Part shown: positions 38,101-44,077 of the stretch, in pieces
Position numbering within the stretch: the stretch's first letter is position 1
How the letters are laid out: each line of letters starts with the position of its first letter
Origin: a virus
Lineage: Duplodnaviria; Heunggongvirae; Uroviricota; Caudoviricetes
Virus record (IMG/VR): IMGVR_UViG_2537561936_000014
Location: 1-44,077 of that record
Reading direction: 5' to 3' (one strand)
DNA length: 44,077 bases
Made by a program: the position numbers

Positions 38101-41100
38101 CCGTTGCAGCACACTTTTGATGTGAGTGTGACAGTATCGGACAGCGTTTTTTCTATTCAGATACCAGAGTATGGCGATGGTATAGGCTATTTTCTGAAAG
38201 ATGCCATTGACCAGAAATATGTAAAATTCCCTTTTATTTATTCCTATGCAACAACGGTGATTCAAAAATGATTCTTGGATTTGGCAATAACGTTGTTTCA
38301 GCACTGGCTGGTGATATCACCACGATTCAGACTGATATTCCGGTAATGCCCGGTACAGGGGCTAAATTTGCAAAATTGCTTTCTGCCGATTTTGAAAATA
38401 AATCGAACGGGCAACGTGTCTATGCAAAAATTACGCTTACCGATAATAAAGAGTCTGCATTTGAGATTTGTCACCTGGTATCGGTAAGCGGTGATGTGTT
38501 GAAAGTCATTCGTGGGCAGGAAGGAACAACAGCGAAAGGTTGGTCCCTTAATGACGTTGTGGCTAACTTTGCCACGCGTGGTTCGGAAAACCATTTCGTA
38601 CAGATAGCGCAGCTTCAGAGTGGTCATTATATTGCGGGAGTTGCTGGCGGCACTGCAAACGCGCTGACTCTGGAGCTTCCCGCGACGTTTTTTGTTAATG
38701 GAGGTACAGACTGGACGCTACGAGCCCCGATTATCGTTTTCCCCGTTCAGAACAATACCAATGCCGCGACACTTCAATTAACACTGGGCGGAAAGGTTCT
38801 TGGTACGTTCCCGCTTTATAAGGGGAACAAGTCCGGGCTGGTAGCGAACGATATCATTAAAGGCATTCCCTTAATTTGTCTTCTTGATAGCGAGAAAAGC
38901 TATTTCAGCGTGATAAACCCTGGCAATATCTATTCAGATTTTGATCTGCGATATGTAAAAAAATCTGGTGATTTGATGACCGGAGAACTAAAAATCCGTG
39001 GTTTTAATGCGCTGAGGATTTTCAACGAAGCCTTTGGTCTGATTTTTCGTCGTTCGGAAGAGTGCCTGCACCTTATCCCTACCAGTGAAGGTCAGGGCGA
39101 GAATGGCGATATTGGTCCACTTCGACCGTTCACTATTAATCTGCGGACGGGTGAAATATACATGTCGCATAAAGTGTATGTTGGCGGCGGTTCTCAGGTC
39201 AATGGTGCGCTGGGTATCGGCGTTCAGAACGCGCTGGGCGGAAACTCAATTGCTTTCGGGGATAACGATACAGGTATAAAACAAAACGGCGACGGCATTC
39301 TGGATGTTTATGCGAATGGACAGCATGTATTTCGTTTCCAGAATGGTGTGGCGATAGCGTTAAAAAATATTCAGGCCGGAAATGCTGAAAAATTCACGTT
39401 ATACAGCTCCAACAACTCCACGAAAAACGCAACGTTTAATTTATGGGGTAATTCATCCCGACCTGTAGTTGCAGAGCTTGATGATGATTCCGGCTGGCAT
39501 TTTTACAGCCAGAGAAATACCGATGGCAGTATCACATTCGCTGTAAATGGACAGATGATCCCATCAAACTATGGAAATTTCGATGCCCGTTATCAGCAGC
39601 GAAATGGCGGCGTGCAGGATGTGCGTCTGGGAGGTGCCATTGGTATTGGACGCGGAGGAAATGCGCCATCAGGTCATTTACTGAGTGGTGTTGATGGCGG
39701 TCAAAGTGTGGACTGGGCCAATGCACGCCCGGTGCAGGTTCTGATTAATGGTGTCTGGCGAAATGTAGCGAGTTTGTAATCATGATGCACTTAAAAAATC
39801 TTACGGCACAAAACCCTAAAACAATTGAGCAATACCAGCTGGCACGACAGCATAAATTTTTATTGTGGCTGTTCTCCGATGATGGTCAGGAATGGCACGA
39901 AGCCCAGGAAAAATTTCAGCCAGACACTCTGAAAGTTATTTATGTTGAAACTGGCGAAGTGGTCTGGATCGGAAAAGACATCACCTCAATCTGCCCGGAA
40001 AATAAAAGTGTGATTGAGTTGCCGGATATTACCGCTAATCGTCGCATTGAGGCGTCGGGATACTGGTTTTATCGCAATGATGAATTTGTTTTCGACCACA
40101 AACTTAAAGCGGAAGATGAGCGTGATGCACTGTTAAAACAGGCCAGCATCATGACCAGCGAATGGGAAAAAGACCTGCTGCTGGGATTAATCAGTGACGA
40201 AGACAGGGAGAAACTGAAAGCGTACCGCATTTACGCGAAATCGCTGCAGGCGATGGATTTCAACATTATCACTGATAAAACCTCATATAACGCCATTGAA
40301 TGGCCCGTCTCTCCGGAAGCCTCTTCCTGATTTAATTTATCGCGAGAAAAACTATGTCTGTAGTGATATCAGGTGCGCTGATTGATGGCGCAGGCATCCC
40401 CATGTCCGGATGCCACATAATTCTGAAATCCCGGGTAAACACCTCAGAGGTGGTGATGCGCACAGTTTCCGACGTGGTGACAGGAAACTGTGGCGAGTAC
40501 TGTTTTAAAGCGCAGACCGGAAAATATTGCGTATATCTGAAACAGGACTGGCGCGACGAGTACTGTGTTGGCGACATTGCTGTATACGACGACTCAAAGC
40601 CCGGTACGCTGAACGACTTTCTGACTGCCCTTGATGAAGGTGATTTAAAGCCGGATGTAGTGAAACGCTTTGAGGAAATGGTGGCGCAGGCGCAGCAGAG
40701 CGCGGAAGCGGCAGCGGAGAGCGAACGACAGGCCGGGAAACATGTCGCTGATGCGCAACAAATTAAGAGCGCCTGCCAGACACTGGCGGATAACGTACAG
40801 CAGAATGCAGAATCCGTTGCCGAAGATAAAAATCAGGTGGCATTACTGGCGTCATCTGCCACACAGGATGCGGCCCGCGCAGATCAGGCTGTTAAAGACG
40901 CAGACAAAATCGTCGATAAGGCTGTTGATAAACTCGATGAAGCCGCAACGCTGACCGGCGAGGCAAAAGCCAGCGCCGAAGCGGCAGCAAAAAGCGAGCA
41001 GAGCGCGAAACAGCACAAGGACGAGGCGCAACGGATAGTTGATGACCTGAAGGGAAGCAATGCTTCCACAACAGAAAAAGGCCTGGTGCAACTCTGTAGT

Positions 41101-44077
41101 GATACAGACAACGACAGCGAGGAACTGGCAGCCACGCCAAAAGCCGTCAAAACCGTCATGGACGAGACGAAAACAAAAGCGCCACTGGACAGCCCGGCGT
41201 TTACCGGCACGCCCACCACACCAACCCCGCCGGACGATGCGACCGGGCTGGAGATGGCGAACGCGGCATTTGTCCGCAAACTGCTTGCCGCGCTGGTTGA
41301 CTCATCACCGGAAGCCCTGGACACGCTGAACGAGCTGGCAGCGGCGCTGGGAAATGACCCGGAGTTCGCGACAACAATCATGAACGCGCTGGCGGGTAAA
41401 CAACCACTAAGCGACGTGTTAACCGCAATCAGTAATCTGGAAGAACGGGCAGATAATCTTCTGTGCTTTAATCAGGACGGGAATGCTTCGCTGTCTCCAC
41501 TGTCAGAAAAAGCCCGGTCACTGCTGGCGCAGGCCACAGTGGAAGCCATGCGCAATGAGCTTGAGCTGAAAAGCGCAGCGGTAAAGGATATCCAGACAGA
41601 CCTTTACGACAGCACGGAAGGCCGTGTTGCGCTGCCAGGTGCATTTGGTTACGGAATGACGGACGCCGGAGCGCGTTCAATTATTGCCAGCGATATGGCG
41701 ACTGTAGCCAGAACCGCTCACAACCTGCACCCGGGACGCTATTACACCTTTGCCACACGAACGGAAGAAATAACCGGGATAACAGAAATTATCTGGCTGG
41801 ATAATGGCGGGGGCGACAAAACCAGCCAGACAGCAACAAAGCTGGTTCTGTTTTTTGGAAAAGACGGACGGATTCTTATGACCGTTCGTGGCGATAATAT
41901 CTCCGCCCCGGTCACCTGGACGAATCTGACACCACAACTTGGCAATGCAGCACAGAAGGATGCGCAGGAGAATATTTACGACCGCACCGAAGGCCGTCTG
42001 GCGATTCCCGGCATGTTTGGATTCGGGAAAGTATTTTTCATCGGCGACAGGACCGAGTTTAAAACAGAGGCCGATTTTCTCCGCTGGGTAAAAACGGCAA
42101 ATCCCGGACGCTATGCCGTTTATGCAGATACAAATGCGGTAATACAGGGCGTGCTGTTCAAGGGTACCGTTGAAATTATCTGGCCGGAACCTCAAATCAG
42201 CCATGATACGGCATATGTGGCCAAAATCATTATTTTTTACGGTATTAACGGTCATATTTATTACAATCGCTACTGGACTACCGGAGGTGGTTATCTGGTT
42301 GGCTGGGAAAACCTGAAAGTCAACGAGGCTTCACTCCGGGCACTGATTGAAACCCGAGCGCCACTGAACAGTCCGGCACTGACCGGAACGCCGTCCACGC
42401 CAACACCACCGGATGATGCAGCAGGTAATGAAATAGCCAATGCGGCGTTTGTCCGCAAACTGCTCGCCACGCTGGTTGGCTCATCACCGGAAGCCCTGGA
42501 CACGCTGAACGAGCTGGCAGCGGCACTGGGCAATGACCCGAACTTTGCGACAACCGTCACTAATGCACTGGCAGGTAAACAGCCGCTTAACGATACGTTA
42601 ACCAGTATCAGCAAGGCAGGGGTGGGACAAAACTCTCTCCTTTATTTTGGTGATAACTTTAAAGCAAAAGCAATTCCATGCAGCAACAAGGCTCGCTCAT
42701 TACTGGCACGAAACACGCCTGAATCCATGCGCGCGGAGCTTGAACTGAAAGCGGCTGCGACGATGGAACCCCAGACCGATATCCGTGACCGCACACCCGG
42801 CAGGCTGGCGCTACCGGGCGCTTTTGGCTTTGGTAAGGCATTCAGTAACACAGAAGCCCTGACATTTAACGGGCAGGCTGATTTTGCTGAATGGCTGAAG
42901 GAAGCCATGCCGGGGCGTTATGCGGTCAGTATTGCGGACTCTTCCACGCTGCTGGCTGGCACAACGAAATTTAACGGCATCATTGATGTGATGTGGTCAC
43001 CCTTTGATAACGACGAGTCAGACACAGTGCGTAAATTCAAAACGCTGCTGTGTTTTAACCAGTATTACGAAGGTGAGCACAGTATTCATCGCCTGACTTA
43101 CCGCTGGAGTGGAAACAACTGGAATGCAACAGTAAGCCCCATTATTTACGACGGCGATTCGCTGGCCTTCCTGCTGTCCAGGACGGCGGGCTCAGGCTCA
43201 TATTTCAAATACCCGGCAGTGGGTGTTCCTGTGCTGGCTGTTTATCGCGGAACAACTTCCGGGGATAAAGAAATCAATATTGGCCTGGGTGATGTGGTGC
43301 AGGGGTCACAACTGGGCGGAGTTAATCTTTCGTGCGCAATATCTTCTGCTGGGGTTGGCTCCTACAATTCCGCACCGAGTGTAGGAGCTACAGGGTACAC
43401 TTTCCCGGGGCGTTATATGGCGCTATCCGGGGTCAGGGACTCTAAAGGAATAACCGGTCGTATCTGCCTGTTTGTGCGCATCGAGTAACGGGGAATAAAA
43501 CATGAAAATCAGAGCGGTAAAGGGCATCAGAAACGCCCATTATCTTGAAAATGGTGCGGTTGACTGCGAGGTGTTATTTGAAGGTGAAACGGAATTCGTC
43601 CCGTATACCGCCATGCAGGATGATACCGCAATGACAGGCCAGCGTATCTGGGAAGAGTTACAGAGCGGCAAGTGGGGGGAAATTGCCCCATTCACCGTCA
43701 CGCCTGAACTTATCGCAGCGGCAAAAGATGCCAAACGCCAGGAAATCGAAGCCTGGCGCACAGAACAGGAGGCGCAGCCGTTCACGTTCGAATGGAACGG
43801 TCGCACCTGGAACGCTGGCCCCGACTCAATGGCCCGTCTTTATCCGGTAGTAATGGCGGCGAAATCTGATACGGCACGAACCGCCCTTGCATGGGGTGAT
43901 GCCGATAATCAACAGGTGAAACTGTCAATGCCGGAACTGGAAGAACTGGCGACAGCAATGGCGCAGGCACAGGTCGATCGCAATGACGAGATTTATCAGC
44001 GCCAGCGTGAAATGAAGGAAGAACTGAATAACCTGAATGATTTACGTTCAATCAGAGCGATGGTAATTAGTCGGTAA

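Follow-up and report, generated by a model that had tools for sequence, protein, structure and literature searches.

The closest described counterparts of the locus studied here are found in phages phiP27 (L54-L57), Rac-SA53 (tail1-tail4) and pPE4 (gp67-gp70), in which a fibre, a Tfa protein, a fibre with an Stf-type N-terminus and a DUF4376 protein are likewise encoded by the last late genes before attR/attP. The annotations in their records go no further than 'putative tail fibre' or 'hypothetical protein', and we found in the literature neither functional work on the cassette genes nor any report on the fibres of these three phages. In phage lambda, the N-terminal domain of Stf forms a virion-attachment collar, which sits on the gpV/gpM junction of the non-contractile tail (PMC12617516). 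In Alteromonas phages V22 and A5, the DUF4376 proteins gp27 and gp9, respectively, were identified by experiment as fibre chaperones; receptor binding by the fibre depends on co-expression of the chaperone, and the fibre tip is transiently capped (PMC7289586, PMC10579305).

Here, we analyzed a 44,077-nucleotide stretch of viral DNA (the window; IMG/VR record IMGVR_UViG_2537561936_000014), which is a complete Rac-SA53-like myovirus prophage of E. coli with a contractile tail. Profile searches identified a sheath protein (phrog_205, 1e-53) and a Baseplate_J protein in the window, and this Rac-SA53-type myovirus is probably regulated in the lambdoid manner.

Tandem cassettes at the end of the prophage

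The final four genes of the window, all on the + strand, encode a 503-aa fibre (fib1), a 182-aa Tfa protein (tfa1), a 1044-aa fibre (fib2) and a 191-aa DUF4376 protein. A first-pass annotation had described two tandem cassettes of fibre plus chaperone on the same strand at 38268-44077, and our ORFs and profile matches agree with this description. Along the set, an ATGA overlap is followed by spacers of 2, 23 and 13 nt. No strong promoter or terminator was found between the cassette genes; the 23-nt gap between tfa1 and fib2 contained no promoter-like site and merely a weak 5-bp stem. Comparison with E. coli 52F4 gave dN/dS values of 0.16 for fib1, 0.16 for tfa1, 0.23 for fib2 and 0.20 for the DUF4376 gene, which places all four genes under purifying selection. 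Neither fibre ORF proved to be a pseudogene or something other than a fibre, both being intact and matching fibre profiles, and long ORFs with such profile scores are well above chance expectation. Two tandem receptor-binding cassettes with different folding helpers are thus confirmed as a real and conserved layout. It should be noted that this layout has already been annotated in related phages (such as phiP27 and Rac-SA53) and therefore represents a known type of feature.

Upstream of the cassettes lie two baseplate-related genes on the + strand. The gene bpJ (36435-37661), with a start codon taken from the RefSeq annotation of relatives, encodes a 408-aa baseplate wedge protein of the gpJ/gp47 family (PF04865 Baseplate_J, 9e-08; phrog_6, 2e-38), which from its context would be part of the structure carrying fibre 1. 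It is followed in the gpI position by a gene for a 208-aa baseplate-associated protein (37645-38271; phrog_8212, 4e-118), the stop codon of which overlaps the fib1 start. In a Yersinia similis locus, this protein, bpJ and the N-terminal part of fib1 are conserved together.

Gene fib1 (38268-39779) matched the tail-fibre families phrog_6859 (1e-96) and phrog_454 (5e-89). Residues 1-236 of its product appear to form an anchor specific to the tail module, and residues 237-503 a shaft and tip of the P2 gpH/P1 S/phiP27 L54 type. One tail-fibre chain of the 18-chain structure PDB 8jov matched residues 4-160 (E 1e-4), and T4 gp34-like repeats were present. The C-terminus was 62% identical to P2 gpH and 71% to phiP27 L54, whereas the N-terminus was unrelated to phiP27 L54 and to fib2. 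In the Yersinia locus the baseplate and the fib1 anchor co-vary, whereas the fib2 anchor does not, and cassette 1 is best predicted to encode the resident baseplate fibre of the phage. The downstream tfa1 (39782-40330) encodes a Tfa-type assembly protein (PF02413 Caudo_TAP, 4e-22, 79.2 bits against a gathering cutoff of 22.1; phrog_136, 2e-54). It starts only 2 nt after the stop codon of fib1, the tip of which is of the H/S/Stf-tip family, and is predicted to serve trimerisation and folding of the fibre 1 tip as its chaperone, like the family members lambda Tfa, P2 G and Mu U.

The accessory fibre and its DUF4376 partner

Gene fib2 (40354-43488) encodes an accessory Stf-type fibre that matched the 'prophage tail fibre N-terminal' family PF08400 (206 bits, 2e-61), PF03406 (3e-15) and phrog_2636 (3e-294). 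Its N-terminal anchor or 'collar' domain (residues 1-100; 40354-40653) is of a myovirus class and is homologous to the N-terminal domain of lambda Stf (residues 1-91), the structure of which (PDB 9e7m) matched residues 1-93 with an E-value of 1.5e-18. By composition, an Ala/Gln/Glu-rich stalk follows (residues 101-237; 40654-41064), which aligns with the coiled-coil region of Vibrio phage XM1 gp40 and, by analogy with the proximal coiled coil of lambda Stf (PMC12617516), is probably a trimeric coiled coil. A conserved stem unit occurs twice, at residues 273-400 (41170-41553) and 666-795 (42349-42738), and holds the two copies (41171-41435 and 42350-42614) of a 265-nt direct repeat that are 80% identical as DNA; over the longer segments 273-520 and 666-927, the protein is 51% identical to itself (E 3e-63). 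Self-similarity also revealed three domain copies of ~110 aa, mutually 36-42% identical (E 1e-17 to 5e-23). Knobs D1 (residues 404-507) and D2 (residues 528-635), together at 41563-42258, are missing from the shorter homologues of 469-757 aa against which the module map was drawn. Knob D3 and the distal tip (residues 795-1044; 42736-43485) are presumed to be the receptor-binding end. Just 13 phage records matched this distal end, with a top identity of 38%. Its AF2 model (pLDDT 72) had no significant neighbours in the PDB; in BFVD it matched tail fibres predicted for phages Av-05 and Goslar (E 4e-07). For the tip, no relative with a characterised structure or function was found.

The DUF4376 gene (43502-44077, + strand) begins 13 nt after the fib2 stop codon, with a GGGGA ribosome-binding site ahead of its start, and its own stop codon ends at the final base of the window. 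PF14301 matched the C-terminal part of the product (residues 73-177; 3e-17; 63.5 bits, gathering cutoff 25), and phrog_1141 also matched the protein (1e-89). The two helpers show no sequence relationship (BLASTP E 0.17), in line with the earlier view that the cassettes are of different types; one helper is of the Caudo_TAP family and the other a DUF4376 protein. In every context examined, the DUF4376 gene is co-inherited with the distal part of fib2, and by analogy with the Alteromonas proteins its product is presumed to be a chaperone or cap for fibre 2.

The fib2 anchor was 98% identical to that of phiP27 L56 and 75-84% identical to copies from P2-like, Mu-like, Yersinia and Shigella contexts; identity to lambda-type copies was only 42-45%. 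Contractile-tail anchors form a class with at least 66% pairwise identity within it and at most 48% to lambda-type anchors. This class spans three unrelated contractile-tail lineages and is confined to contractile-tail contexts; dN/dS within it was 0.07-0.26 with dS of up to ~2, showing strong purifying selection on the anchor domain. The near-identical anchors of fib2 and phiP27 L56 belong to phages with unrelated necks and tails, which is hard to square with a specific docking partner and speaks against joint mounting of the two fibres; such identity could also stem from a recent transfer, the anchor having no function in one of the host phages. Full-length copies of the class were present in ~159 of the 5426 complete E. 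coli genomes, and at least 89 of these genomes have the anchor contiguous with a Tfa gene.

The four-gene layout is also present in Rac-SA53, pPE4, E. coli W and E. coli 52F4, and is maintained across E. coli, Shigella, Salmonella and Yersinia. It occurs in phiP27 too, although that phage has only lysis and fibre modules in common with the window and is unrelated in its head, its neck and its Mu-like tail. Cassette 2 was terminal in four different tail-gene contexts. Besides the present one, it lies at the end of Mu/phiP27-like tail operons, after J-lom in lambdoid siphoviruses, and directly 3' of gpD in P2-like prophages, where the whole sheath-to-D block separates it from H/G. The lambdoid J-lom-stf loci share the fib2 distal part and the DUF4376 gene, at times in the same genome. 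In Salmonella and Yersinia relatives, the cassettes are set apart by inserted morons (acetyltransferase, GT2 glycosyltransferase). These comparisons show that cassette 2, an accessory module, is portable, and its recombinational acquisition, considered possible in the first-pass annotation, appears to be true. In some prophages (E. coli EC11 and E200086), fib2 has been reduced to remnants by deletion and is therefore dispensable, a point that also counts against its mounting on the virion.

Proposed placement of the two fibres and rival readings

In our preferred reading, to which we give a probability of about 0.65, two receptor-binding modules, independent of each other, close the late operon, and a single virion carries both fibres, each at a site of its own. 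Virions would then most likely carry two fibre sets with different specificities; carrying two sets at once and having acquired one by recombination, offered earlier as alternatives, appear to be true together. As the N-terminus of fib1 is unrelated to that of fib2, the fibres do not have to compete for a single docking site. The two modules would be co-transcribed. In the first, the N-terminal 236 residues of fib1 would anchor fibre 1 to the Rac-SA53-type baseplate, and the P2-gpH-like tip, folded by Tfa, would probably recognise LPS core-type receptors. In the second, fibre 2 would comprise the Stf-type collar domain, the coiled-coil stalk, a variable number of stems and knobs, and a distal tip, which the DUF4376 protein would fold or cap; its attachment site may be a neck ring or the periphery of the baseplate or sheath. 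Cassette 2 would thereby provide a second, rapidly exchangeable specificity and may act as a primary or reversible adsorption device, as Stf does for Ur-lambda.

A remnant or variant of an invertible host-range switch of the Mu G, P1 C or e14 P type is a very improbable explanation. It draws on the membership of the fib1 tip in the P2 H/P1 S/Mu S family and on ~130 nt of fib2 (42472-42603, in the second stem unit) with 83-84% DNA identity to the constant part (Sc) of gene S of P1/P7, beside cixR. However, the cassettes have the same orientation, with none of the oppositely oriented alternative tip and chaperone genes that mark the switches of Mu G, P1 C, e14 P and p15B Min, and neither fibre lacks a complete N-terminus of its own. 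A tblastn search of the window with Mu Gin gave no serine invertase of the Gin/Cin/Pin/Hin family (best E 0.89), and a Gin/Cin/Pin-like ORF was found neither in the window nor in the flanks of seven relatives. No 26-mer of the window was within 7 mismatches of gixL or gixR, and the crossover core AAACCNNGGTTT showed no enrichment (4 matches, 1.9 expected), with no match inside a fibre junction. Only one weak inverted repeat was present overall, and none flanked the cassettes. The earlier remark that the window shows no invertase or crossover site thus held. Just past the window, where a search for an invertase had been proposed, relatives place attR/attP or the integrase: in Rac-SA53, E. coli 52F4, phiP27 and pPE4, no further phage gene lies between the DUF4376 gene and these elements. 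With no invertase, no crossover sites and same-strand cassettes, the switch is refuted for practical purposes.

It is also unlikely that cassette 2 came from lambdoid siphoviruses as a recombinational hitch-hiker which, expressed or silent, is not assembled on the contractile-tailed virion. Sharing of the fib2 distal part and the DUF4376 gene with lambdoid loci would fit such an origin, as would the loss of fib2 in some prophages. Moreover, the gpV/gpM docking site of the lambda Stf collar (PMC12617516) has no exposed counterpart in a myovirus. There the site is buried under sheath and baseplate, which also counts against our preferred reading. However, the anchor is not of the lambda type but of a separate class found only beside contractile-tail genes of three unrelated lineages, it is under strong purifying selection over a large synonymous divergence, the whole of fib2 and the DUF4376 gene show dN/dS of 0.20-0.23, and the layout persists in the four host groups named above. 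We consider it quite improbable, too, that the fibres are alternatives, with virions carrying one, the other or a stochastic mixture through competition for attachment or separate regulation of cassette 2. The morons between the cassettes and the separation of cassette 2 from H/G in P2-like prophages do imply that it can function as a separate unit. On the other hand, competition for one site is unlikely between unrelated anchors, no switch element is present, and the short tfa1-fib2 gap offers nothing resembling a promoter.

If both fibres are mounted together, as we prefer, fibre 2 could be a neck or collar fibre on the rings of head-completion and tail-terminator proteins, similar to XM1 gp40, rather than a second baseplate fibre; this is a tentative suggestion, somewhat doubtful as it stands. 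Residues 1-196 of fib2 align with residues 1-187 of gp40 (E 1.2e-9), whereas residues 1-200 of lambda Stf fail to detect gp40 at E <= 1; however, the score derives mostly from low-complexity coiled coil, and the anchor alone gives a non-significant E of 0.18. The XM1 protein is similarly built, with an Ig-like N-terminal domain and a coiled coil of ~100 residues, and six trimers are located at the neck (PMC10457771). Rings of tube-fold proteins would be exposed only at the neck in a myovirus, and the anchor is conserved among phages with unrelated baseplates. On the other side, the necks of these phages are as unrelated as their baseplates, and fib2 lies at the end of the baseplate and fibre operon.

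Comparison with known systems

The likeness to phiP27, Rac-SA53 and pPE4 extends to sequence: the fib2 anchor is 96-99% and the fib1 C-terminus 56-71% identical, and tfa1 is 94% identical to phiP27 L55. Unlike the window, phiP27 has an HK97-like head and a short fib2 of 490 aa. Compared with all three, the fib2 of the window has an extra stem and two extra knob domains, and over the distal tip identity is no more than 31-38%.

Lambda Stf and Tfa of Ur-lambda resemble cassette 2 in the homologous collar domain (PF08400) followed by a coiled-coil stalk, and in having an accessory, dispensable fibre encoded last in the tail operon, the chaperone gene lying directly downstream (PMC12617516). In contrast, the virion encoded here is contractile, the fib2 anchor is only 45% identical and of a separate class, the chaperone is DUF4376 rather than Caudo_TAP, the tip is not gp37-like, and fib2 is preceded by a fibre and Tfa rather than by J-lom. 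The pairs gp26/gp27 of V22 and gp8/gp9 of A5 share with cassette 2 a DUF4376 protein of ~190-240 aa encoded immediately 3' of a knob-containing fibre, and knob duplication varies among homologues (PMC7289586, PMC10579305). This likeness is one of gene arrangement and of DUF4376, and in those phages the pair is described as the receptor-binding fibre module rather than an add-on after another fibre cassette.

Cassette 1 is similar to P2 gpH/gpG, P1 S/U and Mu S/U, with a tip 62% identical to the C-terminus of P2 gpH and a Caudo_TAP chaperone next to it; it differs in an anchor specific to the Rac-SA53-type baseplate, and the window lacks an invertible segment. The collar spike gp40 of XM1 also combines, in a myophage, an Ig-like anchor, a long trimeric coiled coil and a receptor-binding part, but its distal part is a tailspike, and its gene is not described as adjoining the baseplate genes gp11-gp18 (PMC10457771). 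Some other phages likewise equip one virion with a terminal-receptor device plus a primary or accessory fibre (PMC12617516, PMC11990801). Those phages are mostly virulent or siphoviruses, whereas the present phage is a temperate myovirus in which both devices are fibres, and its second cassette also occurs in siphoviruses.

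Prophage background of the fibre block

The window extends from a lambda-type integrase gene (572-1690, minus strand) to the final gene of the tail. Among its products are the tail sheath protein (26853-28190; phrog_205), the baseplate hub, a spike resembling phi92 gp138 and a Baseplate_J protein (bpJ; 36435-37661, plus strand). Therefore, it is a complete myovirus prophage with lambdoid regulation. The nearest deposited relatives were Escherichia phage Rac-SA53, the 'Actinobacillus' phage vB_Apl-pPE4 and the prophages of E. coli W, LY180 and 52F4, the last three of which are sited at the Rac (uspF-ompN) locus. 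No publication relevant to the phiP27, Rac-SA53 or pPE4 fibres was found; the 'P27' of PMC12502783 is a different phage, a podovirus (Traversvirus), and not phiP27.

Several other features of the region were recorded. An ORF for a 155-aa DUF2335 membrane protein occupies 1-468, its ATG being the exact start of the window, and the last base of the window is the end of the stop codon of the DUF4376 gene. Because both ends coincide with gene ends, the prophage region seems to have been cut at gene boundaries rather than at att sites. At 1990-4461 (minus strand) lies the gene for a RecE-like protein of 823 aa, which has a 3'-5' exonuclease domain of the Rv2179c-like type. The baseplate operon is split between the spike gene and bpJ by a minus-strand moron block (34004-36413), which contains an AntA/AntB antirepressor gene (34539-35102), two genes (35382-35855 and 35865-36413; phrog_26680 and phrog_31333, PHROGs without assigned function) for small proteins that begin with a signal-peptide-like stretch and a strong bidirectional terminator-like hairpin (34004-34037; 14 bp, 8 GC pairs). 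The pPE4 record (PP818812.1), labelled as an Actinobacillus pleuropneumoniae phage, showed 92-99% identity to E. coli Rac-SA53-like prophages and matched about half of the window, including recE, terminase, baseplate and fibre anchor; on these sequence matches, its host label looks doubtful.

Composition of the two fibre cassettes

The first-pass annotation had described two tandem fibre plus chaperone cassettes of different types at 38268-44077, and this was borne out by four consecutive plus-strand ORFs, each confirmed by profile search. The first cassette consists of the fibre gene fib1 (38268-39779; 503 aa; tail-fibre PHROGs, 1e-96 and 5e-89) and the Tfa chaperone gene tfa1 (39782-40330; 182 aa; PF02413 Caudo_TAP, 4e-22), whereas the second comprises the Stf-type fibre gene fib2 (40354-43488; 1044 aa; PF08400 'prophage tail fibre N-terminal', 2e-61, and also PF03406) and the DUF4376 gene (43502-44077; 191 aa; PF14301 DUF4376, 3e-17). 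The 208-aa baseplate gene in the gpI position (37645-38271, plus strand) overlaps fib1 by ATGA, the spacers downstream are 2, 23 and 13 nt, and no strong promoter-like or terminator-like site was found between the genes of the block, which are predicted to be packed as a single operon. The two putative chaperones were unrelated by sequence (E 0.17). Both matched phrog_11571, but tfa1 did so over profile positions 19-104 and the DUF4376 protein over 84-215, which overlap little, so that this PHROG appears to merge a Tfa-N-like portion with one of DUF4376 type.

The first cassette is the resident baseplate fibre. Residues 4-160 of fib1 resemble a tail-fibre chain present in 18 copies in PDB 8jov, and T4 gp34-like repeats were also found in this protein. 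Comparison with a Yersinia similis locus (L010) revealed 60% identity for fib1 residues 1-236, 80% for bpJ and 82% for the 208-aa gpI-position protein. The same 236 residues were unrelated to the N-terminus of the phiP27 fibre L54, whereas from residue 237 on fib1 was 71% identical to it; the final ∼190 residues shared 62% identity with P2 gpH and were also matched by P1 S and Mu-like fibres. Co-conservation with bpJ, the N-terminal mismatch with L54 and the C-terminal identity to P2 gpH and L54 thus argue for a fib1 anchor that is specific to its tail module, with the tip and the Tfa chaperone coming from the widely exchanged H/S family.

The N-terminal domain of fib2 is homologous to that of lambda Stf (PDB 9e7m, E 1.5e-18), which in Ur-lambda forms the dodecameric collar by which four side fibres are attached where gpV meets gpM (PMC12617516). 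This anchor is followed by an Ala/Gln-rich stalk, a PF03406 repeat and an internally duplicated region (51% identity between residues 273-520 and 666-927), the duplication being mirrored by a 265-nt DNA repeat; a knob domain of ∼110 aa occurs in three copies. Homologs ranged from 469 to 1061 aa, and the fibre of the window corresponds to the 757-aa type with an extra stem and two knobs. Its distal tip is rare, with 13 matching phage records, all at 38% identity or less. An AF2 model of residues 780-1044 (pLDDT 72) had no significant Foldseek neighbour in PDB, and its BFVD matches were solely predicted, uncharacterised tail fibres (phages Av-05 and Goslar), so that no receptor could be deduced from it. 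For the DUF4376 family, experiments with the Alteromonas phages V22 and A5 have established a role in chaperoning, or transiently capping, the fibre (PMC7289586, PMC10579305).

Additional details of fib2 were observed. Within its anchor, the stretch at 40354-40566 (residues 1-71) holds five cysteines (C20, C46, C50, C59 and C71), which give spurious matches to snake-venom disintegrins, compared with one or two cysteines in lambda-type anchors; C71 is retained in most, not all, myovirus-class copies. C-terminal fragments of this fibre type (42694-43485) are in many NCBI entries named 'shikimate transporter, partial', in one 'phage portal protein' and in another 'major capsid protein', evidently propagated misannotation, with draft assemblies breaking inside repetitive fibre genes. 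In the second stem unit, the DNA at 42472-42603 is 83-84% identical to the constant part (Sc) of gene S of P1 and P7, where the matching stretch adjoins cixR and 'repeated element b2'. No cix-like site was present at 42472-42603, and the segment looks like a conserved recombination linker that may be common to very different fibre genes.

Distribution and maintenance of the second cassette

The second cassette is a portable accessory module. We scanned the context of the fib2-type anchor in one genome per species and in the E. coli hits, and examined ∼20 loci for anchor class versus tail type. In E. coli, Shigella, Salmonella (Mu-like baseplate) and Yersinia (Rac-SA53-like baseplate), the anchor followed a fibre and a Tfa gene. 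P2-like prophages had it directly behind late control gene D, far from H/G, and lambdoid siphoviruses had another version of it behind J-lom. These contexts had the distal part of the fibre and the DUF4376 gene in common, at times within one genome, and the cassette was an add-on to three or more myovirus tail modules that are unrelated to each other. Twenty aligned anchors split into two classes: pairwise identity was at least 66% in contractile-tail contexts and at most 48% between these and J-lom-linked copies. The phiP27 anchor was 98% identical to that of the window. Of the 311 deposited phage genomes in which this domain occurs, 4 had an anchor identity of at least 95% (pPE4 is listed; Rac-SA53 and two phiP27 records fit by anchor identity); the remaining 307 were below 60%, and the matches listed among them were lambdoid, Stx-converting and other long-tailed phage types. 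At full length, the myovirus-class anchor occurred in ∼159 of 5426 complete E. coli genomes.

Relative to E. coli 52F4, dN/dS was 0.16 for fib1, 0.16 for tfa1, 0.23 for fib2 and 0.20 for the DUF4376 gene, and that of the anchor alone was 0.07-0.26 even where synonymous divergence reached 1.3-2.1. Such low values indicate that in myovirus prophages the second cassette is maintained as a presumably functional coding unit rather than a decaying passenger. It is also dispensable, since E. coli EC11 and E200086 are deletion derivatives that keep only remnants (the first 14-33 fib2 codons, joined to a DUF4376 fragment). The remnants lie at 5356-5475 of the E200086 locus and 5325-6055 of the EC11 locus, both of which retain fibre 1 and Tfa; in EC11, a type I restriction endonuclease gene takes the place of the moron block, and before uspF there is a gene for a YadA-like adhesin.

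Possible roles of the two fibre sets

The cautious proposal that the phage carries two fibre sets at once, or that the second cassette was acquired, holds: the cassette is both maintained and portable across unrelated tail contexts. In the best-supported reading, to which we assign a probability of roughly 0.65, virions carry both sets at different attachment sites. The baseplate fibre would have a P2-H-like tip matured by Tfa. For the Stf-type fibre, the DUF4376 protein would mature the tip or cap it, and this fibre would serve as an additional, easily exchanged adsorption device comparable to Stf of Ur-lambda (PMC12617516, PMC11990801). That the second cassette is a hitch-hiker, not assembled on the virion, is unlikely given its class-specific anchor and purifying selection. 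Display of the fibres as alternatives rather than simultaneously also seems improbable, as the two anchors are unrelated and the genes are closely packed in an operon.

The block could further be an invertible host-range switch or the remnant of one, which is extremely improbable because none of the defining features checked was found. Consistent with the initial remark that no invertase or crossover site was visible, tblastn with Mu Gin gave no match in the window (best E 0.89), gixL/gixR-like 26-mers and meaningful inverted repeats were absent, and the crossover core was not enriched; we rejected the switch on these searches. Nor, judging from the relatives, does an invertase lie just beyond the window, where a search for one had been suggested: in Rac-SA53, pPE4 and the E. 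coli W, LY180 and 52F4 prophages, the DUF4376 gene is the final phage gene, with attB/attR and uspF no more than ∼0.5 kb behind it; in pPE4, whose record is permuted, the integrase gene comes next. An apparent inverted U'/S' pair between the Tfa and Stf-type fibre genes of a Salmonella locus (L011, 8650-9956) proved by Pfam to be opposite-strand genes for a hexapeptide-repeat acetyltransferase and an unknown protein of 249 aa, and the Yersinia similis counterpart (L010, 8737-9738) is a family-2 glycosyltransferase moron, not an invertible fibre segment. These morons are possibly O-antigen-modifying (seroconversion) genes beside receptor-binding genes.

The docking site of lambda Stf is buried in a contractile tail such as this one. 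Comparison of 14 concatenated tail proteins with PDB was uninformative as a guide to where fib2 docks, the sole match being the 237-aa spike to phi92 gp138. The anchor and coiled-coil architecture of fib2 resembles XM1 gp40, a neck-mounted collar spike of a Vibrio myophage (PMC10457771). Residues 1-196 matched gp40 at E 1.2e-9, and gp40 was not detected with lambda Stf residues 1-200. However, most of this score came from the coiled coil and the anchor alone gave E 0.18, so we downgraded the link, and neck attachment as in XM1 is a lead rather than a result. That the anchor is nearly identical in phages whose necks and baseplates are unrelated points to docking on a structurally generic ring, or to recent transfer in some hosts.

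Multi-fibre phages, Stf homologs in myophages and DUF4376 chaperones are already documented. The phiP27 and Rac-SA53 records and many RefSeq prophages already contain the layout itself, the genes being annotated there as putative tail fibres or hypothetical proteins, and its presence in phage records since the phiP27 genome makes the feature unsurprising. What is modestly new is the division of the Stf-type anchor into contractile-tail and lambda classes. More tentatively, and we would rather doubt than assert it, the contractile-tail anchor could be a distinct class of a universal plug by which a portable fibre and DUF4376 cassette mounts on Rac-SA53-like, Mu/phiP27-like and P2-like myoviruses, whose heads, necks and baseplates are unrelated, possibly at the neck as in XM1, with distal modules swapped with lambdoid siphoviruses of the other anchor class. 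If true, this would represent a plug-and-play accessory receptor-binding system across morphotype boundaries.

Exchangeable fibre modules are the main route of host-range change, and two receptor-binding devices allow faster adsorption and passage of barriers such as O-antigen. Here, an accessory fibre cassette that brings along a non-Tfa chaperone proves to be common to lambdoid siphoviruses and, in enterobacteria, to three or more kinds of temperate myovirus that are unrelated to each other, and several phages with it carry toxin genes (Stx2e in phiP27 and LT-II in Rac-SA53). If the myovirus-class anchor truly docks on unrelated contractile tails, it would offer a handle for host-range engineering of phages and tailocins, and would bear on the spread of toxin-converting prophages. 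Phage phiP27 has these four genes in the same arrangement (L54-L57) beside attR; its head, neck and Mu-like tail show no detectable similarity to the window, and the lysis genes and fibre cassettes alone match.
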